NCBI GenBank assembly: GCA_016699425.1 | Contig: CP064975.1 | Location: 590,098-654,097 of the forward strand | Direction of reading: 5' to 3' | Source of the DNA: Candidatus Moraniibacteriota bacterium | GTDB lineage: Bacteria; Patescibacteriota; Minisyncoccia; Moranbacterales; UBA1568 | Length of the DNA stretch: 64,000 bases | Shown: in pieces, positions 6,332 through 64,000 of the stretch | Layout of the letters: each line of letters begins with the position of its first letter | How positions within the stretch are numbered: the first letter of the stretch is position 1 | Notes under the pieces: model-generated | What the model was told of the DNA's origin: nothing | What the model saw: the letters and a program-made list of their open reading frames with translations, nothing else | Databases searched by the model: none | Made by a program: the position numbers and the translations under genes

Positions 6332-6408
6332 TCTTAGGTATAAGAGATTCTCACCTAACAGCCTTCAGTGTACCGTTTTCACAAAAAACAGGAAGGATCT
6401 CATATTAC

Positions 6409-6984
6409 TCATTTGCTTTTCTCATTCTTCAGATATTCGTTCGCTTTCAAAATAAGAACGCATGTTGGGCCATGCGTGATTGCTCCAGTCATAACCATAT
6501 TCAAAACTTCTTGAAATGGCATCTTTATTAACTCTATCTGTTCCGTACCTTCTGGTAAAGCACTTCCCCCTACAACCAGTTCTCGTGCGAGAAAAAGAGC
6601 AGAGGGACAATTAACAACCGATGTGAAGGGATCAACACTGCCCAAAGGAACCCATTCAGAAGCTGTAATGCCCAGTTCTTCTTGCAGCTCGCGTTTGGCA
6701 GCAGTGAGAACATCTTCATTCTTGTCGATACCGCCACTCACCGATTCTATACTTTCCCTGTTGATTGCAAAACGAAACTCCTTGGTCAGATATACCGTTC
6801 TGTCGGAATCCATCGGCAACACAGAAACACCCGCTATCATTTCTACAATTCCGAATATGCCATCTTTCCCATCGGGGCGTATGACCTGATGTTCAGTAAC
6901 AGCGATCCACTTGTTCTTGTACTTTTCAATACTCTCTTTGATTTTCCAGGGTCCGTGAGTTCGCATATAATCAAAGTTCTTCAT
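6409..6984 (-). CDS. NUDIX hydrolase (ADP-ribose pyrophosphatase-like)
   Basis: Nudix box GGIDKNEDVLTAAKRELQEELGI (Gx5Ex7REUxEExGU). Confidence 0.85.
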   Translation of the reverse strand: MKNFDYMRTHGPWKIKESIEKYKNKWIAVTEHQVIRPDGKDGIFGIVEMIAGVSVLPMDSDRTVYLTKEFRFAINRESIESVSGGIDKNEDVLTAAKRELQEELGITASEWVPLGSVDPFTSVVNCPSALFLARELVVGGSALPEGTEQIELIKMPFQEVLNMVMTGAITHGPTCVLILKANEYLKNEKSK

Positions 6985-6999
6985 TTTTTTGTGGTCGCT

Positions 7000-46027: not shown

Positions 46028-46030
46028 TCT

Positions 46031-47215
46031 TTGTCTATGGAGCCACCCCTTACGCCCATTCCCACACGTCTCCAACCGCTCTATACGAAGCTCCGTATCA
46101 CACTCGCGATTGGTCTCGCACTGGCTGGTCTCGCGCTTGTCTATACTTTTCTGTTCCCGACGGTGACGACTGGCTTTGACTTCCGCAATCCGAAATCGAG
46201 CCGGAATCAGATCTTCGAGCCGCGCGCTGAATCGGGCACACCGCGAACGAATGGCAAACTCGAAGCGCTCGGCCGCCTCGTCGCCAACACGAGCCCGCTC
46301 GGAAATTTTTCGCACCTCACGGTCAGTATCGATCTCGAGAAGCAATCCGAAACCCCGAGCCAAATCGCAGTCAGCATTCGGAAGGGGTATCGCGCCTTCC
46401 TCTATCCGACTGGGGCTGAGATCACCGACTTTCCACAATCAACCGTCTACCGCATCCGCGATACATACTATGAGTCACGAAGTGGTGTACTGTATCCCTT
46501 TGTCAGTGAAGCGGCGTATCTCTCACGTTACCCGGCCAGTCATACCACACTTGAAGCGGACGATTTTGGCTGCATCGGAATAGCAAACTGCGATGGTAGA
46601 GTAGATGTTTCCGATCAATTCATTGGGTTCCGCGTCGGCACGCTCCTCTCGTTCGCCGATGGTGTCTACGTGGTCACGAGCGAATCCGAGATCCGCCCTA
46701 TCGGCAGCGCCGAGATCTTCCTGGCGCTCGGCTACCGTTTCGAGGACGTCTTGCCAGCCAATGAAGAAGATCTGGGGATATACAAACGCGGTCGCATTCT
46801 CCTTATGGGCGCCCCGCACCCAGACGGCACCCTCTTCGTGGACCAAGACACCAGCACACTCTTTCTCATTGAGGGCGAGATGCGCCATCCAGTCAAACCG
46901 GGCGCGTACCATGATTTCCTCTTCGCCAACTCGCATCCGATAACCGCGAGCGAGTCCGGAAGTCGTCGGAGTGCTCAATGCACAGCCACATCCGGATTGC
47001 TCCCGCGTGCGCTCGATTGTGTCACTGAGCTTGGAACTCTTGACGGCGTCATCGGGTCAGACTATGAAGTGACGCTCTCGGACAATGACGTAGCGATCGA
47101 CATCGCGAACCTGACCCTCGCCTTCGAGACTCGCCTCAGTTCCGACAACCTGACGACGCTCCTCGCCAAAGTGAAACAGCGCATCCTCGCCCGCTTTGGT
47201 CTCGCCACACCGTAA
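46031..47215 (+). CDS. membrane-anchored hypothetical protein
   Basis: 394 aa, N-terminal TM helix; no recognisable family. Confidence 0.45.
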   Translation: MSMEPPLTPIPTRLQPLYTKLRITLAIGLALAGLALVYTFLFPTVTTGFDFRNPKSSRNQIFEPRAESGTPRTNGKLEALGRLVANTSPLGNFSHLTVSIDLEKQSETPSQIAVSIRKGYRAFLYPTGAEITDFPQSTVYRIRDTYYESRSGVLYPFVSEAAYLSRYPASHTTLEADDFGCIGIANCDGRVDVSDQFIGFRVGTLLSFADGVYVVTSESEIRPIGSAEIFLALGYRFEDVLPANEEDLGIYKRGRILLMGAPHPDGTLFVDQDTSTLFLIEGEMRHPVKPGAYHDFLFANSHPITASESGSRRSAQCTATSGLLPRALDCVTELGTLDGVIGSDYEVTLSDNDVAIDIANLTLAFETRLSSDNLTTLLAKVKQRILARFGLATP

Positions 47216-47220
47216 TCCCT

Positions 47221-47640
47221 ATGGACACATTCTTCAAGAGATCACTCGACAAATACGCGTCTGACGGACGACTCGCCATCGCCGCCAACCTCCTCTCGGA
47301 TATCGTCTGCGTCGGTTGGATCGCTTTTGCCGGTCTGTACGCCGTCGAAGTATTGCTCCCCACATTCGTCACCGCCCGACTCTCACTCGTGAAATTCGCT
47401 ATTCTGTTACTCGCGCTGACAAGTATCCTCGTCTGGCTCATTCAAAGTCTGGCACCGACGAAGCAACCATCAAATAGAATACTCTCGCGCCCCTTACGGA
47501 TTCTCCTCATTATAATTGCGATTGGTATCATTTCGCTTGCACACTATCGCTTCCCCTGGTGGAGCATCCCGATTATCGTCAGCGGCTACAGCCTCGTGCT
47601 GTGGCTCTTCTTCCGGCTCACCCGAGGTGGTGAACACTAA
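47221..47640 (+). CDS. hypothetical membrane protein
   Basis: 139 aa, 4 TM helices. Confidence 0.45.
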   Translation: MDTFFKRSLDKYASDGRLAIAANLLSDIVCVGWIAFAGLYAVEVLLPTFVTARLSLVKFAILLLALTSILVWLIQSLAPTKQPSNRILSRPLRILLIIIAIGIISLAHYRFPWWSIPIIVSGYSLVLWLFFRLTRGGEH

Positions 47641-49826: not shown

Positions 49827-50273
49827 ATGAGAAACACTATGCCCGAAAAATCCCGCCCCTGTAAACTCGGTATGGTCTTCGGTGTCTTTGATGGACTCCA
49901 TCCCGGACATCAGAATTTCCTTCTCGAAGCGGCTCAATCCTGCGAGAAGCTCGTTGTGGTAGTCGCTCGGACAAGTATCGTCCGGAAGCTCAAGGGACAT
50001 GCTCCCCGGCACGGTACCCGCGTCCGGATGAATGCCATTCGAAGTTTCCTGGATCATGCCCACATCGTCCCGAGCGATCGAACTATCGGAAAGTGGCGCG
50101 TCCTCCGAGACCACTCACCAGACATAGTCTTCCTTGGCTATGACCAGGAGCGGATGGCCGAAAGCCTCACTCAAATCAAACAGCCCTTCCAATTCCTCAG
50201 TCCCCATCAACCGAAGAGATTCAAGTCCAGTCTGCTACACACGTCCGAGGAAAAGAAGAGGATCTCCCGATAG
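49827..50273 (+). CDS. FMN adenylyltransferase-like cytidylyltransferase-fold protein (stand-alone RibF N-domain)
   Basis: GVFDGLHPGHQ (HxGH nucleotidyltransferase motif); 148 aa; faces the rib operon convergently. Confidence 0.65.
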   Translation: MRNTMPEKSRPCKLGMVFGVFDGLHPGHQNFLLEAAQSCEKLVVVVARTSIVRKLKGHAPRHGTRVRMNAIRSFLDHAHIVPSDRTIGKWRVLRDHSPDIVFLGYDQERMAESLTQIKQPFQFLSPHQPKRFKSSLLHTSEEKKRISR

Positions 50274-50275
50274 AG

Positions 50276-50737
50276 CTAGAGGAGTGCTGCTTCAAGCGCG
50301 GCCGCCGTCGCTTCCCGACCCTTGTTATTCCCCTGTGTTGATCGGGCGATGGCTTGTTCGAGTGTGTTGACCGTCAACACGCCGAGCGTAATCGGGATCT
50401 CATACTTGATCGTCAGGTCAATGAGCCCTTGGGCCACTGCCTGAGCGATGATCTGGTCATGGTTGGTCTCACCCTTCACAACACAACCAAGCGTGACAAT
50501 TGCATCCGGCCGATGCTGCTTCATCAGTGAGACACAACCATAAGGGATTTCGAAGCTTCCCGAAACCTGCATCACAAAGATATTCTTCTTCTCCACCCTC
50601 CACTCTCCGAGCTCCGCCAATGCACCCCGAAGGAGTTTCTTGGCGATTGCCTCATAGTAAGGCGAGACAACAATTCCGACTCTGAGCCGCGAGGCATCCC
50701 TCCTGTTGGTGCGACTGACACTGCGTTTCCTTTGCAT
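50276..50737 (-). CDS. ribH: 6,7-dimethyl-8-ribityllumazine synthase
   Basis: …RVGIVVSPYYEAIAKKLLRGA…VMQVSGSFEIPYG… lumazine synthase core. Confidence 0.85.
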   Translation of the reverse strand: MQRKRSVSRTNRRDASRLRVGIVVSPYYEAIAKKLLRGALAELGEWRVEKKNIFVMQVSGSFEIPYGCVSLMKQHRPDAIVTLGCVVKGETNHDQIIAQAVAQGLIDLTIKYEIPITLGVLTVNTLEQAIARSTQGNNKGREATAAALEAALL

Positions 50738-50749
50738 AGGATTGATTCG

Positions 50750-51343
50750 TCAATGATTACTCTTTCCGAGGGCGTTCACCACATAGCGGGCCAAGAGATC
50801 CACCTCGAGATTCACCACACTCCCCTCTTCCAATAATTGCAGGTTCGAATGCCGCAGTGTATATGGAATGAGCGCCACTGTAAACGTCCGCTCCGTTTTA
50901 CGCGCCACAGTGAGGCTGACACCATTGACGGTAATCGCACCGTGTGGAGCGATATACGGTTTCAATGCCGGCGGAATGTTCACGGTCACTTCATGTTTCC
51001 CATGGACTTTCACAATTGATACGACCTCACTCGAACTATCGACATGCCCCTGAATGAGATGGCCATCCAAGGGTGATCGCAGCGTCACAGACCGCTCCAG
51101 ATTGAGCTCCGTTCCGCGCTCGACAAACTGCATAGTCGTCTTGGACAATGTTTCCGGCATATACTCGACATTGAAAGCGACCGGGCTCTGGCTCACTACC
51201 GTCGTACAGACTCCATCGATCGAGACGCTCTGCCCTTTCCGAAGTTTCCAATTCCTCGGCTTCCCGATCCGGACGTGACGAGAGCCATCTTTGTCCTGAA
51301 CCGAGAGCACGGGTTTTACTGCTTCGATGATACCGGTAAACAT
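50750..51343 (-). CDS. ribE: riboflavin synthase alpha subunit
   Basis: MFTGIIEAVKPV start and duplicated lumazine-binding half-domains. Confidence 0.9.
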   Translation of the reverse strand: MFTGIIEAVKPVLSVQDKDGSRHVRIGKPRNWKLRKGQSVSIDGVCTTVVSQSPVAFNVEYMPETLSKTTMQFVERGTELNLERSVTLRSPLDGHLIQGHVDSSSEVVSIVKVHGKHEVTVNIPPALKPYIAPHGAITVNGVSLTVARKTERTFTVALIPYTLRHSNLQLLEEGSVVNLEVDLLARYVVNALGKSNH

Positions 51344-51356
51344 AAAAAATAGGTCT

Positions 51357-51716
51357 CTAGATCTGAAAATAATCCTTCACTTTCTGCACAACCTGAGTAA
51401 TGAATTCTCGGGCATCAGTTTCCGATGTGAATTCAGCTGCTTCCGCGACTTTCGCCAGGAGGGTGATGCGAATTTCTTCGCCATAGAGATCGCCTGAAAA
51501 CCCAAAGAGATGAGCCTCGAGAAGCTGCCTCCCCTGATTCGCATATACCGCAGCGCGATATTCTCTCTCTCCGACCCATACCAGACCTGCATAGGTACCG
51601 GAAATATTCGGCTGATCGAAGTGAATATTGGCTGTCGGGAAGCCGATCGGTTTCCCGAGTTCCATGCCTTTCTCCACCACCCCGCTCTGCTCGTACACAA
51701 ATTCCTTCATCATCAC
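51357..51716 (-). CDS. riboflavin kinase (stand-alone RibF C-domain)
   Basis: GKPIGFPTANIHF flavokinase motif; 119 aa. Confidence 0.8.
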   Translation of the reverse strand: MMMKEFVYEQSGVVEKGMELGKPIGFPTANIHFDQPNISGTYAGLVWVGEREYRAAVYANQGRQLLEAHLFGFSGDLYGEEIRITLLAKVAEAAEFTSETDAREFITQVVQKVKDYFQI

Positions 51717-51767: not shown

Positions 51768-51796
51768 ATTGACAAGTATAGATATTGATGCTAGAA
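51768..51796 (+). promoter_or_regulatory. sigma70-like promoter for 51871-52367
   Basis: TTGACA, 17-nt spacer, TAGAAT; about 70 nt upstream of a GGAGGTG RBS and ATG. Confidence 0.5.
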
Positions 51797-51870
51797 TGTG
51801 CAATCAACTGGGGAGCATTCCTCTTTTGATGCATTCCTTGTCAATTGTAGTCCACAGCACAGGAGGTGCA

Positions 51871-52367
51871 CCATGACAACTGCGTTTCTCATCTCTCACG
51901 GCAAGCGGTATGAGGGGTTTAACCCGCTTCACACAAAAGACGGGCGCGAACAATTAGCCCGCCTCACCATCCCATCCGGTGTGACCAGGGTCGTCGCCGG
52001 AAGTGGCCGACGCTTCCAGGAAATCGCCGACGCTATCCGCCGCAAGTTGCCCATAGCGTCAGATGTGCCCTTTGAAACTTCCCCTTTCTGCGGCTCATGC
52101 GACGGCATCCGCTTCGGTAAGAATCCGGGCGAAGGCGACATGATCGTCTTGTCGGAGGGAGAAGTGCCGGTCGAGAAATATCTCGGCCTCGTCGGGACCC
52201 CGGGCTTCGATCCGTGGGCGTTCGTCAACGGACTGGGCAATGGCGCGTTGCTCTGCGGCGGCGGAGAACTACTACTTGCCCTCGGCTACAGTGGAGTCCC
52301 TCCGAAAGGGGCCCTGTTCGGCCTCGACGCCTTAACCAAGGAGATCACCCTGCTCCAACAGGGCTGA
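51871..52367 (+). CDS. SixA-sized histidine-phosphatase-fold protein with variant SHG catalytic motif
   Basis: MTTAFLISHGKRYEGF…DGREQLARLT parallels the RHG…LTxxG signature of PGAM/SixA-type phosphatases but with Ser in place of Arg; 165 aa; RBS caggaggtgcaccATG. Confidence 0.5.
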
Positions 52368-52441
52368 TCCACTCCCCTCGCCCCCGCTCCGCTTCCTCTC
52401 CTTTCACGCATCGCGCGAATGGTCGAGGAGTGGGGCTTTTT

Positions 52442-53848
52442 TTATTCTCCGAGAATCCGCACCACCCCCTCATTGGCATTCACCTCGACCAAGTCGCCAT
52501 CCTTAAGTACCTGCGTCGCAATCTTGGTGCCGATGATACAGGGGATGCCAAGCTCGCGGGAGACGATAGCCGCATGACAGGTTATCCCACCCTCATTGGT
52601 GACTACGGCCCCAGCCCGCTTCATGATCGGTACAAACTCTGGCCGCGTCATGCTCGTCACGAGTATGTCCCCCTCTTGAAAGCCATGATCATCGTGAGGG
52701 TCGGATACAACCCGCACGATTCCTTGCACGCGTCCGCGGCAAGCCGTTTGCCCCTTCAGCTCACTGGAGTCATGGACCTGATGTTTCGTCCAGGCATCAA
52801 ATTGTGCTATGGCATCTGGGAAATCACAGTACTCGACTTCGTACGAATGATCAGGATTCGCGAGATAGAGACATCCCTGATCCCGAGTGCTGATGTCGTC
52901 TTGTTTGCTCTTCAGATATGCAACTCCTTTTGTATATTCAGCGAGCAGAATATAGGGCACAAACCTCGGTTCTATACCGGCTCGCTCGGTCATGAGAGTG
53001 CCGACCTCGAGCATGACGGCGAGCATCTGAGCGATCGGATCCTTCCGGATATCACGTAAACGCATAACGAGCTGTGCATATTCGACGAGACGCCGTGCGT
53101 CTGGCGTGAGCGTCTCTCGCCAGGCCAGATGCGCATTCGCTCGATCTTGTGCCTCCGTATAGAGGCGCTCCGCTTCTTGTGTCTTCTCGGGGAGATGAGA
53201 TCGGACATCGTCCAGTGCCACCGCGATCTCGTCGTCGCTCTTCGACCGGAAGTAATCCGTGAACATGAACTTCGCCTTCCGCACGATGTCGCCCTGGCCA
53301 GCCGCTACGAGCTCGGTCATATTGCAGAGATAGCGCCCCTCAAAAGAGACAAAGGTCGCCTGTGTCGCGCGTTCCCATATCGCGTCGAGTTCACTCCTAT
53401 GCTCGATACCGATGACATCGAGTATCTTGTCGTGGTCGATCGTCTCGATATAGATAGTCGCTAGCAGTTCGGGGTACAGACGATTCATAATGACAAGCAT
53501 ATACTCCTGCAGTTCCGCGTCCGCTAGCTCAGAGAGCGTCTTGTCGGTCACCTCGTCATACAACTGCCGCGCATCCCGCTCGTATACGCGATACTCCTCT
53601 TCGAGTTCTCGGAGCGATATCGTCCCCGCATAGTATTGGCGAAATTTCTCTGTCGCGAGGGAAAAATATCTTTTCTCATTCAGAGCGATGCAGGTATCGC
53701 GCCCCTTCGCGAGAAAAAGGGTGTGTAGCGGATACTCCTGGGTATTCCATGGTACGCACATGAAGAAGGGTGCCATCGTGGCGTGAATGACAAAGACTGG
53801 GTCATCACCGACTATACTCTTAAATTTTTCCAGTATCTCGTAAGTCAT
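52442..53848 (-). CDS. PEP-utilising-enzyme mobile (phosphohistidine swivel) domain protein, paralog 1
   Basis: C-terminal GDILVTSMTRPEFVPIMKRAGAVVTNEGGITCHAAIVSRELGIPCIIGTKIATQVLKDGDLVEV, i.e. PpsA/PPDK-type swivel His (CHAAI). The ~380-aa N-terminal region belongs to no recognised family. Confidence 0.8.
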   Translation of the reverse strand: MTYEILEKFKSIVGDDPVFVIHATMAPFFMCVPWNTQEYPLHTLFLAKGRDTCIALNEKRYFSLATEKFRQYYAGTISLRELEEEYRVYERDARQLYDEVTDKTLSELADAELQEYMLVIMNRLYPELLATIYIETIDHDKILDVIGIEHRSELDAIWERATQATFVSFEGRYLCNMTELVAAGQGDIVRKAKFMFTDYFRSKSDDEIAVALDDVRSHLPEKTQEAERLYTEAQDRANAHLAWRETLTPDARRLVEYAQLVMRLRDIRKDPIAQMLAVMLEVGTLMTERAGIEPRFVPYILLAEYTKGVAYLKSKQDDISTRDQGCLYLANPDHSYEVEYCDFPDAIAQFDAWTKHQVHDSSELKGQTACRGRVQGIVRVVSDPHDDHGFQEGDILVTSMTRPEFVPIMKRAGAVVTNEGGITCHAAIVSRELGIPCIIGTKIATQVLKDGDLVEVNANEGVVRILGE

Positions 53849-53889
53849 ATTCCATACTACGTCCTAGAATGAGCATCAGGTATCGCTCA

Positions 53890-54849
53890 CTATTCCTGCT
53901 GATTGGCAGTGGTTACGAGTGTTTCGAATGCCTTCCGGTCATCGATAATTTTCGCCAATACCTCTCGACCAAATTGGACCGACTCCTTCCGATCACCTTG
54001 CTCGGCATCCTTGATCGTGTATGTCAGCACGATGGTCTGATCCATTCCGGTATTTACGATCTCGATACGCACACCCTCAGCCTCCAAAAAACCCGAACCG
54101 ATAGACTGTACGAACTTATCCTTGGCCTCCACACCTTTGACGGTCTCAAGTACTTTGGCAGTGAAGCACTCCGCGATACCCATATGTGTCCCTAGGTATC
54201 GCTCAAGTTGATTTCCGGTTTCCTCATATTTCCCCTCTGTATCCCTAGCAACGATCCGCTGGAAATTATTTCCCACCGTCGCATAGCGGGCGACGATCTC
54301 GGCTACGTTCCCGGCCATTCGGGTATACGTCGAGGATTTTTCATCTCCCTTTTCAATCGCGTCTCGATCACTGTCATTCATCGCCCATGGCAGGTAGCGC
54401 TTTTCCATATATGCCTTCACACCATCAGGACCGATCGGACCCTCATCAGTGAAACCCAAGCGATCATCCACGAGCATCTTTTTCCCATAGTGAACCTGCT
54501 CCGCGACCTTCGCTTCGATCACCTCAAGCGAATCATCTGGAGAAATATCCTCGTTGGCGAGCATCACCCGGTACGCCGTCTCCTGGGTCCGTACGCGCGA
54601 ACTCCCCATGCCCATGGCAACTTCCGGCTGAGGGTCGACTGTCTTCCCATGCTCGGTGACTTGTGCGCGGCCCTCTGGAGTCAGGCGCAGATTCGGATTT
54701 GCCTCCTCTTCCACTGTCTTCCCTCTCTCTCGCTTTCCATGGCGCATGAGTTCCAGGATCACCCTCGTGATTTGTTTTGGCTCTTGTTCTTTACTTTCTG
54801 GTCCCCGCTCGGGGCCACCCTCCATTGACTTGAAACTTCCCCCTTCCAT
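53890..54849 (-). CDS. histidine phosphatase superfamily protein (PGAM-like, branch 1)
   Basis: …ILELMRHGKRERG…LRLTPEGRAQVTEHGK… (RHGxR…LTxxG…H). Confidence 0.7.
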   Translation of the reverse strand: MEGGSFKSMEGGPERGPESKEQEPKQITRVILELMRHGKRERGKTVEEEANPNLRLTPEGRAQVTEHGKTVDPQPEVAMGMGSSRVRTQETAYRVMLANEDISPDDSLEVIEAKVAEQVHYGKKMLVDDRLGFTDEGPIGPDGVKAYMEKRYLPWAMNDSDRDAIEKGDEKSSTYTRMAGNVAEIVARYATVGNNFQRIVARDTEGKYEETGNQLERYLGTHMGIAECFTAKVLETVKGVEAKDKFVQSIGSGFLEAEGVRIEIVNTGMDQTIVLTYTIKDAEQGDRKESVQFGREVLAKIIDDRKAFETLVTTANQQE

Positions 54850-55058
54850 ACTTGTTTTCTTAAAAGTTTATAGTCTAGCGTATGACTCCTCTATTTTGAC
54901 ACAGAGCGTGTATTCTTGGAATTTGTCGACATCGGGATGTGCCGACGATTGACAGGACTATCGAATTGTGCTATCTTATCTTGTCAGAGCGACTCAAGTG
55001 TTGCTTTGATGAAACACCTTGACAACCCGATCAACGATCAAACCCAGGAGGTTACACC

Positions 55059-55754
55059 ATGATCGAACCCGTTTATACTGAACATCCTCTGCGTGGCATT
55101 TCGATGGCTCGAATGTCGGCACTCAGAGACAGGCTGCGGCCCGATGTGGAGTTCCACATCTACCGGCACGGCAATGCCGCCCCGCAAGCGAGTACGGCTG
55201 ATGGCACCGATTTCCAGCGTCAGCTGACGGAAAAGGGCCGGTCACAGGTCCGCAGGCTCGGTCAGAAGATCGTCGGGATTCCCTATGACCTGGTGATCTC
55301 GTCGCCGGCACCCCGCGCCATCCATACGGCACTGATCGCCACCGTTGAAAGCCGGATCGATTCCAATCCGATGTTCCACATCGGCACGGGGGTGCAGTTC
55401 TACTCGCCGACGACCCCGGGGCATTTCGCCGAGCTCCTCCGAATCGGCGCTGGACTACAATACAACAACTACGGCGAGTATCTCCGGGCCGACACGATGT
55501 CGATCTGGCCAACCTTCCGAGCCGAGATGCTCGGTAACCTACTCGGGATCCTCGGGATCGCAGCCGCCCGGCAGATTTTCGTGAGCAATCACGGAGTAAT
55601 CGGAAGCTGCCTCGCCGAGGCACTACTCCAGGTCCTCGCCGGCGAGATAGACGAACAGAGTCGGGAGGTGCTCTACAACACATCGGCGGCTGAGTGTAGC
55701 TGCTTCCAAGTGTCGAGAGCCGGCGTGCAATACATCGACTACCTGGCCACCTGA
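55059..55754 (+). CDS. histidine phosphatase family protein (SixA/PGAM-like)
   Basis: VEFHIYRHGNAAPQ…QRQLTEKGRSQVRRLGQKI…ISSPAPRAIHTA matches the canonical RHG/LTxKG/…SP..R…T signature. Confidence 0.75.
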   Translation: MIEPVYTEHPLRGISMARMSALRDRLRPDVEFHIYRHGNAAPQASTADGTDFQRQLTEKGRSQVRRLGQKIVGIPYDLVISSPAPRAIHTALIATVESRIDSNPMFHIGTGVQFYSPTTPGHFAELLRIGAGLQYNNYGEYLRADTMSIWPTFRAEMLGNLLGILGIAAARQIFVSNHGVIGSCLAEALLQVLAGEIDEQSREVLYNTSAAECSCFQVSRAGVQYIDYLAT

Positions 55755-55771
55755 TCACCCACCAACCGCAA

Positions 55772-55824
55772 CGCCCCGGAAGGGACGCCGCTCAATGAGC
55801 GCTGTCTCTCCGGGGCTTTTTTTT
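55772..55824 (+). terminator. intrinsic terminator
   Basis: gccccgga…tccggggc stem followed by T9. Confidence 0.5.
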
Positions 55825-55832
55825 TGAAGGGA

Positions 55833-57302
55833 TTATCCTGCCCGCTCGAGCACTCGCACCACCCCGTTGTCCGCGTCCACTTCGACCAGATCACCGTCGT
55901 GAAGTACTTGTGTTGCAATTTTCGTACCGATGATGCAGGGTTTTCGGAGCTCACGGGCGACGATGGCCGCGTGACAGGTGATGCCGCCTTCATCCGTGAT
56001 AATGGCAGTTGCTCGTTTCATAAGTGGAACAAACTCCGGACGAGTCATCCCGGTGACGAGGATATCGCCATCTCTGAAGTGGTCGAATTTGCTGGCATCC
56101 AATACTATACATGCCTTTCCCTGGATTTTCCCTGGTGATCCGATCTGCCCCCGTAGCGTATCTCCATTTTTTCCACCGGTAACCGATTGAACGTAAAACT
56201 CAGTGAGCTGCTGTTTGGCGATATCATACTCAATCGGCTCAAGCGTGATCGTTCCATCAAACTCGATGAGCAGAACAGCTCCATTCTTTCGCGCTTCAAT
56301 TTCAGTGGCATGCAGCTTCAGATACTCAACTCCGAGCAACATCTCATCGAACTGAATAGAGGTTATCAACGCATGATCCATCCGGGCTTCAGTCAGCACC
56401 TTTTCATAAATAAGCCACCAAATAACCAATGCCTTGGCAAAAAGATTCTTTCTCCGATCGCGGTATTCAATAATTCTCTGTATATACCAAACCAAAGCCT
56501 GCTCATCTTTTGAAAGCGTCTTGGTCCAATCATCAAGACGAGTCCTCGCTTCTTCTAATACATTATCCAGCGCCATCAATTTCAAACGAGCCTGATCTGG
56601 TGTGAAGGCGCCATATTCACTATCGATTTTCTCAGCCGTTTTTTCCAATGTTTCCACACCGAAATAGTTAGAGAAAATAAATCGGGCATTCTCTATTCTG
56701 TATTCATAAGGTCTGCCTTCGGCTATCGTCTTCAAAACAGATCGCTGCTGCGCTTTTTCGAACGACTCGACTGCTGGATGTGTCGCCCTCTCCCAGATTT
56801 CATCAAGTCGTTCTTGAAAGATCAAGGAATCGACCTCCTTCAGTACATCGAAACAAATCTCTTTATCGAAATACACCGTGAAAAATATGAAACCATTCAG
56901 GCCCCAGACTTCATCCCGAATAGCATCCATGACAGGGAGTAGTTCGCTTGTCGGAATTTCTAAGACTTTCTTACTGGTATACTCTTCGTAGAGTGAAGAT
57001 ATATGAGCCTCTATCTCATCAAATGTACGAAAACGATTTTCAGCCTCATTCGAGCCACTGAGGTACGATCTGAAAATATAACGAGAGCAATATTCGAGGG
57101 TATCGGCGGGAAGCATCTGCAGAGAATCCCCTTCTTTGGCAATCAGAATGAGATGCAGCGGCGGAAGGCCGGGATAGTAATCTCCAAAATATTTTGCCGT
57201 ATTAAATGCAGAACCTTGTCCAAAAAAAGTATAATTATGAAGCGGTGGCCACAGCTTCCGCCCATTCATCAAACCACTGAATTTTTGTAGCGCATTATTC
57301 AT
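55833..57302 (-). CDS. PEP-utilising-enzyme mobile domain protein, paralog 2
   Basis: C-terminal GDILVTGMTRPEFVPLMKRATAIITDEGGITCHAAIVARELRKPCIIGTKIATQVLHDGDLVEVDADNGVV. Confidence 0.8.
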   Translation of the reverse strand: MNNALQKFSGLMNGRKLWPPLHNYTFFGQGSAFNTAKYFGDYYPGLPPLHLILIAKEGDSLQMLPADTLEYCSRYIFRSYLSGSNEAENRFRTFDEIEAHISSLYEEYTSKKVLEIPTSELLPVMDAIRDEVWGLNGFIFFTVYFDKEICFDVLKEVDSLIFQERLDEIWERATHPAVESFEKAQQRSVLKTIAEGRPYEYRIENARFIFSNYFGVETLEKTAEKIDSEYGAFTPDQARLKLMALDNVLEEARTRLDDWTKTLSKDEQALVWYIQRIIEYRDRRKNLFAKALVIWWLIYEKVLTEARMDHALITSIQFDEMLLGVEYLKLHATEIEARKNGAVLLIEFDGTITLEPIEYDIAKQQLTEFYVQSVTGGKNGDTLRGQIGSPGKIQGKACIVLDASKFDHFRDGDILVTGMTRPEFVPLMKRATAIITDEGGITCHAAIVARELRKPCIIGTKIATQVLHDGDLVEVDADNGVVRVLERAG

Positions 57303-57303
57303 A

Positions 57304-59484
57304 CTATTTTATAATCCTCACCGCCCCATTATCTGTCACAGCACCAGAACTTCGTTCGGGGCTGGACTCCGCTTTGTTTTCACCGTCACCGAAAGCCACT
57401 CCGCTTTTCGCACTGGACGCTCTTTCAAGGATCATCACCACCCCATGATCCGCATCCACCTCGACGAGGTCGCCATCGTGGAGGACCTGCGTCGCGATCT
57501 TGGTCCCGATGATGCAGGGTTTCTTCATCTCCCGTGCGACGATGGCCGCGTGACACATGATACCGCCCTCATCAGTAATTATAGCGCCACACTTATGTAT
57601 TAGCGGCAAAAGAGAGGGATTTGAATTTATAGAAACCAAGATATCTCCCATGTTAAATTCTTTCTTCTCGTCGATTGAATACACGATACGCGCAATCCCC
57701 TTCACATTCCCCTGAAATACGGTCTGCCCTCGTACCCCATCGTGATCATCGACATGTTCGAGTGTTGCTATTACCGCAGCTGGATCTGAAACAAATGAAA
57801 CATTTTCGGCACCATCGAGAACCTGATAAACAAAGAATTTTCTTCTGTGAGATAGACTCATACGTTGGCTTGCGACCTCAGCGGCACCAGAGAGTAGTTC
57901 TTGCAAGGTCATGTAAGGAAGAACCGAGGGGTCAAGCCCACGCGCATGTAATTCCTCCTCAGCAAGAGGAATAATAACTTGAGAGACAAGATTCGGGTAT
58001 AAAGATACTGAACGAATATCTTCTGCCAATGTGAGGAGTTGTGTATCTTGATACGTTATATCTTCTGAGAAAGCGATAACCCAATATGGAAGAATGGTGG
58101 CTCGGAGAGAAAGACAAATCAGAAAATCCATCGCACTTGCAATGTCCACGAACTTCATTTCTCCTGAGAGATACTTTTTCGCCTCTTGATTTAAGAGTAC
58201 CCCCTCCTCAAGAAATACTATTACTTGTTGTTCATTCTGTTCGCATAACGTTTTGACATACCGCTTGTGGTCTTCTAACTCATCGTACTTTCTGTAGTTT
58301 CTCGCAACGCCAGTTACCTGTTCTATAAATAGGGCGTTCTTCATTTGTGAACCCAGAACCTTGAGAGTCTCTGGCGAGTTATACCACTCCTGCCAAAGCG
58401 ATGCGCCAAATAGCGTAAATGGACGCGTGAGGTAATGTGTCCAATGAGTATCTTTGTTATAGAGTGCATCTGAAACTCGCTCAATCACCCGCACCACCCC
58501 CCGATCTGCATCGACTTCGACCAGATCGCCATCGTGCAAGACCTGCGTCGCGATCTTGGTCCCGATGATACAGGGTTTCTTCATTTCCCGCGCGACGATG
58601 GCGGCGTGACAGGTGATGCCACCTTCATCGGTGACGAAGGCAATCGCTCTTTTCATAATAGGGAGAAAAGTCGGTATCGTCATCGGACTGACCAGCACCT
58701 CACCATCCCGGAAAGACTTCATATCCTCGTTTTTTATCACCCGCCGCACCCGACCCCTCACCACTCCGAAGCAGGCGACCTGTCCGGGAAATTCGCTCAT
58801 ATCTGATACGTCAACGCTTTCTTCGAGTCGAAAATCAAATTTCACCTGCAATTCATCAAACTCCGACGACGACGTCAACATATCATCCACCAATATAAGT
58901 TTCTCTTTTTTTCGTAAGGCAAGTGACGATAGTGAGGGAATATTTCCGGATGACACCTCCTCTAACATAAGGAAATCGGACTGCGATCCAAAATCTGGAT
59001 ATCGAGTTCTCAGTATCGTACGAACATGATTGAAAGCCTGATACTCAAATTGGTCTATCCCCTTCCGGAACCGAAAGGCGAGATCTCTGTCCTCTTCGCT
59101 GAATCGTTTATCCGAAGGGATATGGAGCGCTACGTATAATGAGTCCCAAGCCTCCAGAAGAAAATCTATGAATGTCATGAATTCCTTCTGACTCAGATCC
59201 GTACGCATACACAGGTTCCTCAAATCTTGAATTTTTTCTTGCGCCTGAAGAAAAAGACTTTCCACATACGCTGGGTTCTCGATGATTTTTTTCAGGAGGA
59301 TAGCATTGATTTCGCCATTCAATGCCGGGTGACGATACGCATCCCATACACCATTCCGAAAGATGCAGATGTTTCGAGGAAAAATATCAATTTTCGTGCC
59401 GAAAAAAGAGCGATACCGCTTCCCCCATATCTGGAGGAGGAGTAAGGGAAAATCCCTCGTATATATTTTCGGGAGGATAATCAT
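57304..59484 (-). CDS. PEP-utilising-enzyme mobile domain protein, paralog 3 (two swivel domains)
   Basis: Internal domain …GEVLVSPMTIPTFLPIMKRAIAFVTDEGGITCHAAIVAREMKKPCIIG… and C-terminal domain …GDILVSINSNPSLLPLIHKCGAIITDEGGIMCHAAIVAREMKKPCIIG…. Confidence 0.8.
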   Translation of the reverse strand: MIILPKIYTRDFPLLLLQIWGKRYRSFFGTKIDIFPRNICIFRNGVWDAYRHPALNGEINAILLKKIIENPAYVESLFLQAQEKIQDLRNLCMRTDLSQKEFMTFIDFLLEAWDSLYVALHIPSDKRFSEEDRDLAFRFRKGIDQFEYQAFNHVRTILRTRYPDFGSQSDFLMLEEVSSGNIPSLSSLALRKKEKLILVDDMLTSSSEFDELQVKFDFRLEESVDVSDMSEFPGQVACFGVVRGRVRRVIKNEDMKSFRDGEVLVSPMTIPTFLPIMKRAIAFVTDEGGITCHAAIVAREMKKPCIIGTKIATQVLHDGDLVEVDADRGVVRVIERVSDALYNKDTHWTHYLTRPFTLFGASLWQEWYNSPETLKVLGSQMKNALFIEQVTGVARNYRKYDELEDHKRYVKTLCEQNEQQVIVFLEEGVLLNQEAKKYLSGEMKFVDIASAMDFLICLSLRATILPYWVIAFSEDITYQDTQLLTLAEDIRSVSLYPNLVSQVIIPLAEEELHARGLDPSVLPYMTLQELLSGAAEVASQRMSLSHRRKFFVYQVLDGAENVSFVSDPAAVIATLEHVDDHDGVRGQTVFQGNVKGIARIVYSIDEKKEFNMGDILVSINSNPSLLPLIHKCGAIITDEGGIMCHAAIVAREMKKPCIIGTKIATQVLHDGDLVEVDADHGVVMILERASSAKSGVAFGDGENKAESSPERSSGAVTDNGAVRIIK

Positions 59485-60551
59485 ACTCTTTGTACTATCC
59501 TCACCACCCCGTGGTCCGCATCCACTTCCACTAGATCACCATCATGAAGGACTTGCGTCGCGACTCCGGTGCCGACAATACATGGGAGATCAAGTTCTCG
59601 GGCAGTTATCGCGGCATGCGAGAGCAACCCACCGACATCAGTCACCACGGCACTTGCTTTCTTGAACGCATCCATGAGATACGGATCAGTCGTGGTTGAA
59701 ACGAGCACATCTCCCTTATTCATTTCGTTTATTGTGCGGCGGGTTTTCTCAGGATCACCATAATCCCGTATGATAATTTTCACCTTGCCTCTCACTTTCC
59801 TCCCAGAATCATGCGCAACTTTTCCAGAAATCTCTGAGGCCTCGTCCTGGCCGTTCTTCGCATAAAACTGCTTTGCAAATTCTATTGCACGTTCGCCGGA
59901 GAAAAATCTATTGTTATCTTCAGAGATTTCAAAAACAAACGTCTGTCGCGCATCAATTTCCGCCTGCGAGACCCGCACACCATCAAACAACTGCCTCAGT
60001 TCCTCAATTCGATAGTACTGCAGCATTGTTTCTGGCATACTCAAACACTCGGATGTCTTCCGAACTAAAGTGCCAAGGTACCCGTCAGCATGGAAAAACG
60101 TCGGGTCGACATCCGCCCGAAGTTTATTTTTGCATTGCTGAACTATCGCTATTTTTTTGGCCGCTTGAGGATCGTCTGCCGCCGCGACAGAGACACGATC
60201 CCACGCGTACGGATCAAAAACAAAGTAGCTGTGACAAAATTTCGCGAGCATCTTTTCCATGTGTCCTGCGTCCTGTTTCGAGAAGTTTCTTTTTGTTGCA
60301 AACGTCGTCAGCTCAGCATTCATCGTCGCGATTGTCTGCTCTGTCTCTCTCACGATTGCCTCCAATTCGTCTGGCTGCAGAGCCATCCCGCGCTCGGCCA
60401 TTGTTTCAAGCGTCTTCGCTGACGTAAAAACTCTTTTACCACCGTTCTGCGAGATAGTTACCGTCCCGACAGGATCGTAATAGATATTAACGATACTTTC
60501 GAAAAACAGCGTTGTTCCTTTTGATTCAAAGGTAAATGTATACTCACTCAT
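59481..60551 (-). CDS. PEP-utilising-enzyme mobile domain protein, paralog 4
   Basis: C-terminal GDVLVSTTTDPYLMDAFKKASAVVTDVGGLLSHAAITARELDLPCIVGTGVATQVLHDGDLVEVDADHGVV. Start set at MSEYTF, which gives an ATGA overlap with paralog 5; the track ORF extends to 60695. Confidence 0.75.
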   Translation of the reverse strand: MSEYTFTFESKGTTLFFESIVNIYYDPVGTVTISQNGGKRVFTSAKTLETMAERGMALQPDELEAIVRETEQTIATMNAELTTFATKRNFSKQDAGHMEKMLAKFCHSYFVFDPYAWDRVSVAAADDPQAAKKIAIVQQCKNKLRADVDPTFFHADGYLGTLVRKTSECLSMPETMLQYYRIEELRQLFDGVRVSQAEIDARQTFVFEISEDNNRFFSGERAIEFAKQFYAKNGQDEASEISGKVAHDSGRKVRGKVKIIIRDYGDPEKTRRTINEMNKGDVLVSTTTDPYLMDAFKKASAVVTDVGGLLSHAAITARELDLPCIVGTGVATQVLHDGDLVEVDADHGVVRIVQRV

Positions 60552-63061
60552 AGTGATGCCCGTTGAATCACCCGCACCACCCCATGATCCGCATCGACCT
60601 CCACCAAGTCGCCATCGTGGAGGACCTGGGTCGCGATCTTGGTGCCGATAATACAGGGCTTTTTCATCTCTCTCGCGATGATTGCGGCGTGACAAGTGAT
60701 ACCCCCCTCGTCGGTAACAAACGCTGCAGCGCGCTGCATTGCTGGAACGTAATCGGGAGTAGTCATCGCAGTAATCAATATCTCACCTGCTTGTATAAGT
60801 AAGATATCGGCCTTTCTATGAAGTATCCGTGCTCTACCCTGAATTTTCCCTCTCGTAGCAGTCTGCCCCTTCAGCGTCCCCGTATCACTCCCCGGACTCA
60901 CACAGTCCTCCGTGATTTCAATATGAGCGCTCTTTAGAAATTGAATCAGAGTTCTGTCTGTATATATTTCCCTATCGTAATAGAGGAAATGCCTCTTTCG
61001 GTTCTTCAGAGCTGTAATAGTAGGAAACATATCATCTCCCCGTACCTCTTCAATTCGAATATATTTTACGAGGTCACCCAGTTCAGGATACAGAACACCC
61101 AAAGTGCGCTGAAACACATGATCTATCTCTTCCAAAAAATCAGAAGCCCGCTCACGCATACTCATCGCGAGCCGCTTATCGTCAACACTTGCCTGATCCA
61201 TTAGCGGAACAACATATGAGATATCCAAGCCACACCAGGCGTCCAAAGCCCGCTCATAGAATTCTAAAAGTTTTTCTCTACTTTGCAGCGGTCGCCCCAC
61301 TTTCCATACGGGCTCAAGATAATCTAGGATCTCCCCATACCAATGCATGGTCTTGGTGATAAAACCAGAATCCCTAAGCGTCTTCTTTATAATATTTGCT
61401 TCATAATCAATAAATGTCAGCTCATGATAATAGACATGAGCGACACCCTCATGAGCATCGAAAAGAATCGGACGATCAGCCCAATTCAATAATTCTGCAA
61501 TTGTTTTCGTCTGATGCTCCTCCCATACCTGAAACGCGAGTAGGCAATTCTCTCGCGTATATACTCTTTCGTACTTAGTCTGGGCATCGACATTATCCAC
61601 AGATAGCATCGTGTCCGATCGGCCTTGACCCTCTTCAACCACACCCCCCACTCGCTCAATCACCCGTACCACCCCCCGATCCGCATCGACCTCCACCAAG
61701 TCGCCGTCATGGAGCACCTGGGTGACGACTCCGGTGCCGACAATACACGGCACTTCCAGTTCCCGAGAGACGATCGCGGCATGTGAGGTAAGTCCGCCGG
61801 AATCCGTGACGATAGCCACTGCTCGGCGCATCGCAAAGATATATTCCGGGCTCGTCATCGGTGCCACGAGTACCTCTCCTGGCAACAGCCTATCCGATTG
61901 GTGGGGATCGAGCAGAATCCTCACCCGACCCGTAGCGAAACCTTTACTAGCAACGATACCGCTTATTTCCCGTTCGTCCCCTGAGGCCTCCTGATTTGAA
62001 TAGAGCTCAAAGTACTTTCTCGACTCGTCCGCATTCAAGAGCGTCCTCGTATTTGTAATATATTCGGCAAAACCTTTCTTCCGTTCTTCGATCTGTTCCG
62101 TGTAATCTATCCCAGTAAACGTCTCTGCGATTTCCTCGAAAGAAAAATTCAAGAGATCATCCTTCCGCCATCCTTTTCGACGAATCACCTCATCCAGCAA
62201 CATATTCTTATAATGCAGGTACCGGAGAATGTTCTCTTTCCGATTATCCTGCCAGAGAACACTCGATCCGATTGCCTTCCCGATAGACATGATTTCTTCT
62301 GGCAAGGAATATTTCCCCCGTACGTCGTCTTTGTTTCGTTGTACCTCGACTATCCTCAGACGTGACTTCTCTCGGAGACCAGGAAGCAGATTCTTCTTCC
62401 GCTCAATAAAAAACGACTGTGGCAAAGCTTCAACCTGAGAATAACTGTTTCCAATCCAATAATACTGCCTCTGGTGTTCCGCGATATCATCCGTTTCGGC
62501 GAGTCGCATCTCCTCTTCCTGATAGAACGAGATTTCCTCTGGCGCAGTGAGAACTTCCATGAGCGTCGGTATCGAGTCGACCGATGCCCCCAAATAACCC
62601 TTCAGTTTATCCTCGAGAAGTCTGTCGGCACCGTAATTACAAAGCTCGGGAATGAGCCCGGGGGTGATGAAACCGATGATTGCTCGGTGGAGCTCATTCC
62701 AACGGGCTATCAGATCCTCATCAGAGAGGCCCCCTACTCCGCTACCGTCGAGACGCCCCTCAATCCGGACGAGCTGGTCAAGCATCTGCTGATAGTCTCC
62801 TCGAATACGCTGCTCTTTTCCATTCAAGAATATATCCATGAAGGCAGCGCTCCCCTGTTTTCGCAAGGCGTCGAATTCATTCACCCACAAGATAGTGTGG
62901 TCGTTATAGAAAGCCAGTGCGGGCGGCCACATGTACTCGGGGTATTTTTTCTCAAATACTCCTCCACCCATCATCAGATTGAAGTCGCTCTGGTAGAAAT
63001 ACCGTAGCGGTGCCGGACCCCACTTGAACAATTCCACATGTGGATCAATGGGTATCTCCAT
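60548..63061 (-). CDS. PEP-utilising-enzyme mobile domain protein, paralog 5 (two swivel domains)
   Basis: Internal domain …GEVLVAPMTSPEYIFAMRRAVAIVTDSGGLTSHAAIVSRELEVPCIVG… and C-terminal domain …GEILITAMTTPDYVPAMQRAAAFVTDEGGITCHAAIIAREMKKPCIIG…. Confidence 0.8.
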   Translation of the reverse strand: MEIPIDPHVELFKWGPAPLRYFYQSDFNLMMGGGVFEKKYPEYMWPPALAFYNDHTILWVNEFDALRKQGSAAFMDIFLNGKEQRIRGDYQQMLDQLVRIEGRLDGSGVGGLSDEDLIARWNELHRAIIGFITPGLIPELCNYGADRLLEDKLKGYLGASVDSIPTLMEVLTAPEEISFYQEEEMRLAETDDIAEHQRQYYWIGNSYSQVEALPQSFFIERKKNLLPGLREKSRLRIVEVQRNKDDVRGKYSLPEEIMSIGKAIGSSVLWQDNRKENILRYLHYKNMLLDEVIRRKGWRKDDLLNFSFEEIAETFTGIDYTEQIEERKKGFAEYITNTRTLLNADESRKYFELYSNQEASGDEREISGIVASKGFATGRVRILLDPHQSDRLLPGEVLVAPMTSPEYIFAMRRAVAIVTDSGGLTSHAAIVSRELEVPCIVGTGVVTQVLHDGDLVEVDADRGVVRVIERVGGVVEEGQGRSDTMLSVDNVDAQTKYERVYTRENCLLAFQVWEEHQTKTIAELLNWADRPILFDAHEGVAHVYYHELTFIDYEANIIKKTLRDSGFITKTMHWYGEILDYLEPVWKVGRPLQSREKLLEFYERALDAWCGLDISYVVPLMDQASVDDKRLAMSMRERASDFLEEIDHVFQRTLGVLYPELGDLVKYIRIEEVRGDDMFPTITALKNRKRHFLYYDREIYTDRTLIQFLKSAHIEITEDCVSPGSDTGTLKGQTATRGKIQGRARILHRKADILLIQAGEILITAMTTPDYVPAMQRAAAFVTDEGGITCHAAIIAREMKKPCIIGTKIATQVLHDGDLVEVDADHGVVRVIQRASL

Positions 63062-63064
63062 ACC

Positions 63065-64000
63065 TTAATCTTGTTGACTCCAATCTTCTTTTCTTTTCCG
63101 AGAAAATACTTCGAGATCTTGTAGCATCTCTTCCAAACTCTTTTTCATAGCAACGACTTGATCACGATACTTCACCACGATCTGTTCCTCATGAAATTCT
63201 ATCTCTGTTGATTCCAAGAAATTTCTGAAGGTGCTCCCAAATTCCTCAAAGCTTTTCAGATTCAGCTCCTTGCCCATAAGAGCCATGGTAGCAAAGTCGC
63301 TGTAAAAATCATGCGTTATATTCACCACTTTCGTAAGCTGATGAGGAAAGTAGCGCTCAGCAAGGTCATGCATTCTTTTTATGGAAAGAATATAATTCCT
63401 GGCGAAATCTTCCGGCGTCAGGACAAAATCCCCCGAATAGAGAACTTCGGTATCAATACCCGGAACCTTCTTAGTGATCTCATCTTTCATCTGTTGCTGT
63501 TCCTCACTTGATGCCAACCAGAATTTTCCAGTCAGCTCTTCATCTCCATCGAACATCTGGAGATACTTTTTGAAAGCCGGGAGAGCAAGGTTGGTTTCTG
63601 TATAGCCCAAAAGAGTCTGCGGCGTAGCATCGGTAATAACAAACTTGTTATCAAAATTTCCTTTCGCCTGCTCGAGCGAATCACGAGAACGCTCTGCATC
63701 TGAGAGGGATATAAATCGAACATGTTCATTGCCCTGGTAATGTTCTTTCAGCTCCCGCTCGAAAATATCCCTCGTTAGAACATTGCGTGGAACAATCGAA
63801 GGAACGATGATCATCACTGACCCCATCGGCATCGCTTCAAGCTCCGAAATAAGCTCTTTCGCTTTCAATTTTGCCGCTTCCCTACCTTCTTCGGTAGGCT
63901 GAAAATCCTTGTCTCTTGGCAAGTGGCGCATCAAGGCAACTTTACGCTTTGCCTCTGCTGATTCTTCATTAGAAGGATTACCCTCCACTGGTGGCGTAAA
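63065..64000 (-). CDS. histidine-phosphatase-like protein with variant RHL motif; may continue past the window end
   Basis: …KVALMRHLPRDKDFQPTEEGREAAKLKAKEL… aligns with the RHGKR…LTPEGR segment of 53890-54849. The ORF is still open at 64000 (GTG at 63986-63988 is only a possible start). Its 3' end lies 3 nt upstream of paralog 5. Confidence 0.5.
   Translation of the reverse strand, partial: FTPPVEGNPSNEESAEAKRKVALMRHLPRDKDFQPTEEGREAAKLKAKELISELEAMPMGSVMIIVPSIVPRNVLTRDIFERELKEHYQGNEHVRFISLSDAERSRDSLEQAKGNFDNKFVITDATPQTLLGYTETNLALPAFKKYLQMFDGDEELTGKFWLASSEEQQQMKDEITKKVPGIDTEVLYSGDFVLTPEDFARNYILSIKRMHDLAERYFPHQLTKVVNITHDFYSDFATMALMGKELNLKSFEEFGSTFRNFLESTEIEFHEEQIVVKYRDQVVAMKKSLEEMLQDLEVFSRKRKEDWSQQD

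Follow-up and report, generated by a model that had tools for sequence, protein, structure and literature searches.

A tandem array of seven substrate-binding and phosphohistidine swivel modules, probably parts of split dikinases, with histidine-phosphatase partners in a Candidatus Moraniibacteriota genome

The window analyzed here is a 64,000-nt stretch of Candidatus Moraniibacteriota bacterium (GenBank assembly GCA_016699425.1, contig CP064975.1, positions 590,098–654,097), a member of the candidate phyla radiation (CPR). Five minus-strand genes at its end, A to E, encode seven phosphohistidine swivel domains, each preceded by a putative substrate-binding domain (SBD). The seven modules are probably the HpeH/PpsA/CreH-type component of ATP-dependent dikinases of the rifampin phosphotransferase (RPH) family. 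Two-component small-molecule dikinases include HpeHI, PpsAB (phenylphosphate synthase), and CreHI (Dexter et al. 2025, PMC12167813). Genes of the histidine-phosphatase superfamily lie among and beside the modules.

Genes A to E are intact, co-directional open reading frames (ORFs) with the coordinates given in a preliminary description made from the sequence alone. PF00391 was found in all five proteins, with two stretches each in C and E, which confirms the seven swivel domains in five genes that had been described. Whole-protein E-values are 3e-23 to 9e-52 (81.6–173 bits; gathering cutoff 23.1 bits), and the seven CHAAI regions all lie above the cutoff. All seven swivels keep the phospho-accepting His in a GG[IL][TML][CS]HAAI motif. 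The loop is GGITCH in four modules, and GGIMCH, GGLLSH, and GGLTSH occur once each. PF01326 (PPDK_N) and PF02896 (TIM barrel) had no match in any of the five proteins, as the preliminary description had stated. NCBIfam phosphoenolpyruvate (PEP) synthase models score 90–232 bits against cutoffs of 598–740 and cover the swivel only. The swivel-coding segments share only 60–74% DNA identity, which indicates old paralogues and not assembly duplication. Swivel identity is 52–60% within the array and averages 52.8% between loci. Each array swivel is matched in another locus about as closely as by its nearest paralogue, or more closely, and for A much more closely (86%). Concerted evolution, or co-adaptation to one ATP-grasp, was considered for the likeness of the swivel C-termini and rejected, since identity within the array is about the same as between loci.

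The N-terminal regions had been said to resemble no family, and this no longer holds. Fold prediction of gene A is confident, and its AlphaFold2 model matches RPH over 354 residues that span the rifampin-binding domain and the swivel. RPH is the top structural match, at 17% identity, and no other PDB structure aligns along the full protein. The model has a helical SBD packed against a C-terminal swivel, as in the single-chain dikinases of the RPH family. Gene B aligns over 489 aa at 39% identity (8e-121) to residues 318–806 of L012_807, an 807-aa CPR protein with fused PPDK_N, SBD, and swivel, in which the first ~317 residues are the ATP-grasp. On these two results, each N-terminal region with its swivel is likely the part of an RPH-family dikinase that binds substrate and carries phosphate, encoded apart from the ATP-grasp as in HpeHI, PpsAB, and CreHI.

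The other modules are connected to these by sequence. E2 and C1 match residues 306–677 of L016_677, and E2 also resembles L025_344. C2 is 56% identical to residues 732–1077 of L008_1078, and L001_356 and L006_361 are orthologues of D. The seven modules are also interrelated: A and B (33%) and C1 and E2 (36%) align over their full length, and B, E1, and D are related across the C-terminal half of the N-domain. NCBIfam and PDB sequence matches run upstream of the swivel into RPH, PigC, and RedH; in a PDB phmmer search, gene E residues 279–468 align to residues 675–866 of RPH (5fbs).

The second active site of RPH includes Arg666-Glu667 and Lys670 (PMC4844700). Gene A has R265-D266-I-R-K269, which is invariant in family A and matches R666-E667-x-x-K670 of RPH. 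The motif lies 160 residues before His425 in A and 159 residues before the His in RPH, a correspondence positioned by distance to His and not by structural superposition. The counterparts are RDRRK in B and QDNRK in E1, and the Arg is kept in C1 (FRF-R-K) and E2 (MSM-R-E) in a 16-sequence alignment of short-type modules.

About 80 related loci from CPR and DPANN genomes were examined, and in these an ATP-grasp is usually fused or adjacent to the modules. Gene A orthologues elsewhere always lie within arrays that contain a PF01326 gene. In L001–L003, a stand-alone 317-aa PPDK_N is found immediately upstream of three module genes, and in L004 and L005, it is three genes upstream. L006 encodes a 1236-aa protein with PPDK_N and two modules, followed by two more module genes, and L008 encodes two PPDK_N-module fusions and two module genes. 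A query with the stand-alone ATP-grasp found 34 loci (L009–L042) in CPR metagenome-assembled genomes (MAGs) and some DPANN-labeled MAGs. Most of them encode the ATP-grasp and a single SBD-swivel unit as one 670–860-aa protein with the RPH domain order. Some proteins join one ATP-grasp to two or three modules: a 1746-aa protein in L025, with three modules and followed by two more module genes, and a 1311-aa protein in L026. A separate PF01326 partner is present in L001, L004, L030, L086, and L088. L086 closely parallels the array. It has two module genes, then an H2-like phosphatase gene, a PPDK_N that stands alone, another four module genes, and finally an H3-like phosphatase gene in convergent orientation; the array differs in having no ATP-grasp between phosphatase gene H4 and gene E.

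The family of the partner ATP-grasp is sizeable among CPR sequences, counting >7900 clusters below 1e-30; the 120 best matches listed are ~70% identical, and none of these 120 was recognizable as the copy of the genome analyzed here. Across the sampled loci, identity is ~65–75%. The CPR ATP-grasp stands at about the same distance from archaeal PEP synthase as from RPH, and matches PDB entry 9goj at 1.9e-53 (387 aa, deposited as "phosphoenolpyruvate synthase"; protein identity unconfirmed). The modules had been described as lacking dikinase context. Given the ATP-grasp genes in related loci and an array that crosses the window edge, this absence is probably a truncation effect. The array continues past coordinate 64000. 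The H4 family has two proteins. The gene for the second one is separated by 2 bp from the swivel gene that precedes it, which makes one or more further module genes probable just beyond that coordinate.

Several features of the related loci were noted. MAGs labeled DPANN or other archaea (L027, L028, L036, L039, L040, and L041) carry ATP-grasp genes, under the labels Iainarchaeum, Woesearchaeota, "Methanosarcinales", and Thermococci. Most of these ATP-grasps are 64–75% identical to the CPR query, often with modules alongside, and the Thermococci copy (L041) is only 43% identical. This suggests inter-domain transfer between ultra-small symbionts, or mis-binning. L008 has NYN-domain (RNase-like) genes at 6405–6986 and 8620–9123, between module genes. 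In L004 and L005 (6500–11700), the A orthologue is followed downstream by an array split into many swivel ORFs of 63–199 aa, which are either decaying paralogues or products of frameshift-rich assemblies. A PfkB-family kinase and S-adenosylmethionine (SAM)-cycle genes recur near arrays in L004, L008, and L086, such as AdoHcyase in L004 and SAM synthetase in L086. Their recurrence may reflect only shared gene order in related genomes, or it may point to function.

The preliminary description listed four histidine-phosphatase genes, H1 to H4. H2 and H3 are supported by Pfam and H4 by its predicted fold, and H1 is not supported. H2 matches PF00300 at 4e-5 (cutoff 21.7 bits), and RH[GAS], R87, H222, and E227 are conserved in its family alignment. 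The H2-like family has 288 cluster representatives among 1.84e9 proteins. H3 matches PF00300 at 1.6e-9 and the SixA model TIGR00249 at 8.7e-8, the latter with 32.2 bits, below the cutoff of 74.5 bits. R36, H37, R86, and H178 are invariant in the H3 family alignment, and H3 matches Alr0221 (3f2i) at 4.6e-4. Structurally, the neighbors of H4 are phosphatases of small molecules, and SixA does not appear before rank 36. H2, H3, and H4 all keep the catalytic RH dipeptide, the second Arg, and the second His. H2-like proteins and H4 are closest to the small-molecule phosphatases PhoE, RosC, and GpgP, and the closest solved relatives of the H2-like proteins are PhoE-type phosphatases. A few H2 homologues, P0158 and P0199 among them, are fused, or merged by gene calling, with the amidohydrolase domains peptidase M20 (5e-37) and N-formylglutamate amidohydrolase FGase (3e-29). 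These joins may hint at the H2-like substrate class.

H1 had no Pfam or NCBIfam match even at E<=10, and H1, H2, and H4 had no match to TIGR00249. The hhalign probabilities of H1 are 0.6% and 1.2%, its motif is SHG and not RHG, and it has no second His. H1 was therefore rejected as a histidine phosphatase for want of statistical support. Its reading frame starts at 51873 and not at 51871 as first described. H1 is probably genuine, given that the region's best promoter-like site is near it, at 51769–51797, and it may stand outside the system.

The preliminary description had noted swivel and phosphatase genes side by side in the array. Swivel genes and H2-like phosphatase genes co-localize in other loci too, and this association is conserved and non-random. 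Neighbors were tallied by hand in two samples. The loci sampled by ATP-grasp are unbiased with respect to H2; in 6 of ~28 evaluable ones, the last swivel is followed within ~30 bp by the start of an H2-like gene. The 41 loci sampled by H2-like genes, with a four-sequence alignment, are biased, as the search patterns came from H2-like genes already beside swivel genes; a swivel or PPDK_N is immediately upstream in ~29 of ~38 evaluable loci. Two H2-like genes bracket four modules in L067. H3-like genes recur in a convergent position at the array end in L004, L006, and L086, and an LMWPc phosphatase is found near or inside the arrays of L086 and L088.

The domain identities, the predicted folds of A and H4, the homology to complete ATP-grasp enzymes, and the conserved gene neighborhood come from the analysis itself; the chemistry, the shared ATP-grasp, the substrates, and the role of the phosphatases are inferred from the biochemistry of RPH, PpsAB, and HpeHI. 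A separately encoded PPDK_N protein, whose gene is probably close upstream of H4 or at another place in the genome, would bind ATP. The swivel His would attack the beta-phosphate and become pyrophosphorylated, with AMP leaving and the gamma-phosphate released as Pi. The His~P domain would then swing back onto its own helical SBD, where the conserved Arg/acidic pair would position the phosphate for transfer to a hydroxyl of the bound small molecule. Seven divergent SBDs suggest several substrates, with up to seven specificities, and the polypeptides with one ATP-grasp and many modules suggest that one ATP-grasp could serve them all. H2, H4, and H3 would most likely hydrolyze the phosphorylated products or a derivative, in a cycle of phosphorylation and dephosphorylation that traps or activates a compound and then releases it. 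Less likely, the phosphatases would reset His~P. Any specific phosphatase role is held with much lower confidence than the split-dikinase assignment.

Several points weigh against this assignment. No ATP-grasp gene was found in the 64-kb window by Pfam or by tblastn with two CPR PPDK_N proteins. The swivel sequences, including the PEP-synthase-type Thr at the −2 position in five of the seven modules, are nearer to PEP synthase than to RPH or HpeH. Only A and B show the R-[DE]-x-x-K motif clearly: E1 carries Gln where the Arg would be, and D and C2 are uncertain. NCBIfam RPH, PigC, and PRK08296 scores are far below cutoffs with mostly swivel coverage; the RPH-family equivalogs score 58–132 bits against cutoffs of 999 (NF041857) and 1300 (PigC). 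The structural model covers module A, and the RPH-like fold of the short modules C1, C2, D, and E2 is predicted from sequence homology. A product phosphorylated and dephosphorylated by enzymes of one operon would be cycled futilely, unless an unseen step intervenes.

The swivels were first viewed as free phospho-His carriers. In that reading, they serve a multi-component phosphorelay or "phospho-editing" system, and SixA-like phosphatases would regulate or reset the carriers, or even accept the phosphoryl group on their own catalytic His. We consider this unlikely, and the PPDK_N domains in related loci point instead to catalytic parts of kinases. The futile cycle would vanish if the phosphatase target were His~P, and histidine-phosphatase genes are indeed conserved partners of swivel genes, but H2-like genes occur in only about one-fifth of cassettes. 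H3 is the array protein closest to the SixA type, yet its 32 bits are far from the cutoff of 74.5, and H2-like proteins and H4 are nearest to PhoE, RosC, and GpgP, so the analogy to SixA is weak. LMWPc, an unrelated family that often acts on proteins, sits among the L086 and L088 arrays, which fits a protein target. A mere carrier, however, would not need the RPH-type SBD with its conserved catalytic Arg to which the swivels are joined, in proteins homologous to parts of ATP-grasp enzymes. In a further reading, which is distinctly unlikely, CPR and DPANN organisms would have a hub-and-spoke phosphorylation machine. One highly conserved ATP-grasp would charge many modules, some of them several to a polypeptide and each for a different scavenged metabolite, and H2-like proteins and H4 would release the trapped compound or accept the phosphoryl group on their own His. 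Such acceptance, if true, would pass phosphate from His to His into an enzyme of PGAM type, and the system could replace missing conventional kinases or transport steps in reduced genomes.

It is improbable that the modules are antibiotic- or xenobiotic-inactivating phosphotransferases, an RPH-like resistance arsenal that shields a CPR episymbiont, or the host it lives on, against phenolic or rifamycin-like compounds. Characterized members of the RPH/PpsAB/HpeHI family act on antibiotic (rifampin) and phenolic compounds (PMC12167813), rph-like genes were flagged in an in-silico CPR resistome survey (PMC8651080), and RPH is the top structural match. That match is only 17% identical, however, with an equivalog score of 70 bits against a cutoff of 999, and true RPH resistance genes were rejected on these grounds. 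The SBDs are 225–385 aa against ~430 aa in RPH. The size and ~70% identity of the ATP-grasp family among the matches listed look core and not accessory, and a product phosphatase would undo resistance. An artifact, either fragments of a broken pps or PPDK gene or an assembly duplication, is extremely unlikely. PEP synthase models are the top NCBIfam matches of the swivel regions and L004 and L005 show fragmented swivel ORFs, but the five array ORFs are intact (356–837 aa) with tight operon junctions and have same-length orthologues in many metagenomes, so they are not broken pps pieces. The DNA identity of the repeats, the confident fold prediction, and the lack of PPDK_N or TIM-barrel remnants (by Pfam in array proteins and by PPDK_N tblastn over the window) also argue against an artifact.

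The coordinates of the array and the genes downstream of it are reported in Table 1. From the window edge, the order is H4, E, D, C, B, convergent H3, H2, and A. The H4/E/D/C/B junctions are a 3-bp gap, two 4-bp overlaps (D with E and D with C), and a 1-bp gap, with H4 upstream of E. This spacing is typical of a single operon. A second promoter-like site lies near H3 at 54949–54977. GC content at third codon positions is 0.45–0.53 in H4-E-D-C-B, clearly lower than the 0.58–0.62 of A and H2; it is 0.70–0.73 in H1 and H3 and 0.56–0.69 in flanking housekeeping genes. The low values suggest that the H4-E-D-C-B block may differ in origin from the H2-A unit, for example by horizontal acquisition. 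Locus tags from A to H4 number one more than the seven genes counted from H2 to H4, so the NCBI annotation has an extra feature inside the array.

Table 1. Coordinates of the array genes, swivel domains, and downstream genes in the window
Feature	Coordinates	Strand	Description
Gene A (IPJ68_03245)	52442-53848	-	468 aa; one long-type module, SBD ~355 aa + swivel
Gene B	55833-57302	-	489 aa; one long-type module (SBD + swivel)
Gene C	57304-59484	-	726 aa; two modules, C1 (short SBD + swivel) and C2 (SBD + swivel)
Gene D	59481-60551	-	356 aa; single module
Gene E	60548-63061	-	837 aa; two modules, E1 (long SBD + swivel) and E2 (short SBD + swivel)
Swivel A	52448-52765	-	His425, GGITCHAAI
Swivel B	55839-56162	-	His444; PF00391 1.7e-25
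Swivel C1	58471-58797	-	His293; gene C PF00391 1.8e-47, two stretches
Swivel C2	57415-57744	-	His645, GGIMCH
Swivel D	59484-59837	-	His312, GGLLSH; PF00391 3e-23
Swivel E1	61646-61972	-	His427, GGLTSH; gene E PF00391 9e-52, two stretches
Swivel E2	60554-60877	-	His791
H1	51873-52367	+	164 aa from ATG; ORF opens at 51798; convergent with A; no family match
H2	53890-54849	-	319 aa; divergent histidine-phosphatase-superfamily protein, 41 bp upstream of A, same strand
H3	55059-55754	+	231 aa; small SixA/PhoE-like histidine phosphatase, convergent with gene B
H4 (IPJ68_03285)	63065-64000	-	316 aa, first 9 codons past window end; very divergent histidine-phosphatase fold
Riboflavin kinase	51357-51716		
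Riboflavin synthase	50750-51343		
Lumazine synthase	50276-50737		
FAD-synthetase-like nucleotidyltransferase	49827-50273		

A riboflavin/FAD cluster (49827–51716) lies directly downstream of the array. Histidine-family phosphatases of flavin intermediates, RosC (8s6q) and HFP (9mmh), are among the structural or sequence neighbors of H3 and H4. Three successive plus-strand ORFs of 579, 394, and 139 aa at 44288–47640 have no Pfam match, and a ClpB-like AAA+ gene (41741–44302) adjoins them. A defense-system role was rejected, since none of the nine array proteins had a PADLOC match to anti-phage systems.

The enzyme family and its split form are already known. A literature search for a CPR-specific description returned only an in-silico resistome survey (PMC8651080). 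In the literature searched, several features appear undescribed: tandem arrays with as many as seven modules (the maximum in the ~80 loci examined), head-to-tail double modules, polypeptides with one ATP-grasp and many modules, dedicated H2-like and H4 phosphatase partners, and the CPR/DPANN distribution. The RPH/PpsAB/HpeHI dikinases are a small family characterized only recently, and their machinery is common among the sampled CPR loci and present in DPANN-labeled MAGs. The array occupies at least 12 kb, ~1% of a 1.2-Mb genome, and is accompanied by a conserved, previously unnoticed histidine-phosphatase partner family. Current annotations label such genes "PEP synthase" or "pyruvate, water dikinase", or list them as rph-like resistance genes, which probably distorts CPR metabolic and resistome reconstructions. 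Once identified, the substrates could show in what way these symbionts acquire or alter metabolites.

The array can be compared with four groups of known systems. Like SixA, PhoE, and dPGM, H2, H3, and H4 keep the catalytic residues, and H4 has the fold. Unlike them, the H2-like proteins and H4 measure ~300 aa, carry large insertions or extensions, and make up small separate families, and H2, H3, and H4 reach no SixA or other equivalog cutoff. The swivel is closest to archaeal PEP synthase (8a8e, 1.5e-38) and shares GGxT[CS]HAAI with PEP synthase and PPDK, whereas the array genes have neither TIM barrel nor ATP-grasp, and their swivel is C-terminal and not central. RPH (5FBS/5HV1), PigC, and RedH share the helical SBD packed on a C-terminal swivel. 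They differ in having the ATP-grasp on the same polypeptide, as do the homologues L012_807 and L016_677; identity is 17%, and the array proteins score 5–10% of the cutoffs and are not equivalogs.

In comparison with HpeHI, PpsAB, and CreHI, the array SBDs are 225–385 aa against ~470 aa and are beyond sequence detection, with PRK08296 models matching the swivel only. HpeH has Met at the swivel −2 position where most array modules have Thr. The array consists of seven tandem modules with two pairs fused head-to-tail, has conserved histidine-phosphatase partners, and lies in a CPR host without aromatic-catabolism genes nearby. As in HpeHI, PpsAB, and CreHI, an SBD and swivel are encoded on a polypeptide without an ATP-grasp, the catalytic His is in a GGxxxH loop near the C-terminus, and a separate ~320-aa PF01326 partner is found in related CPR loci.

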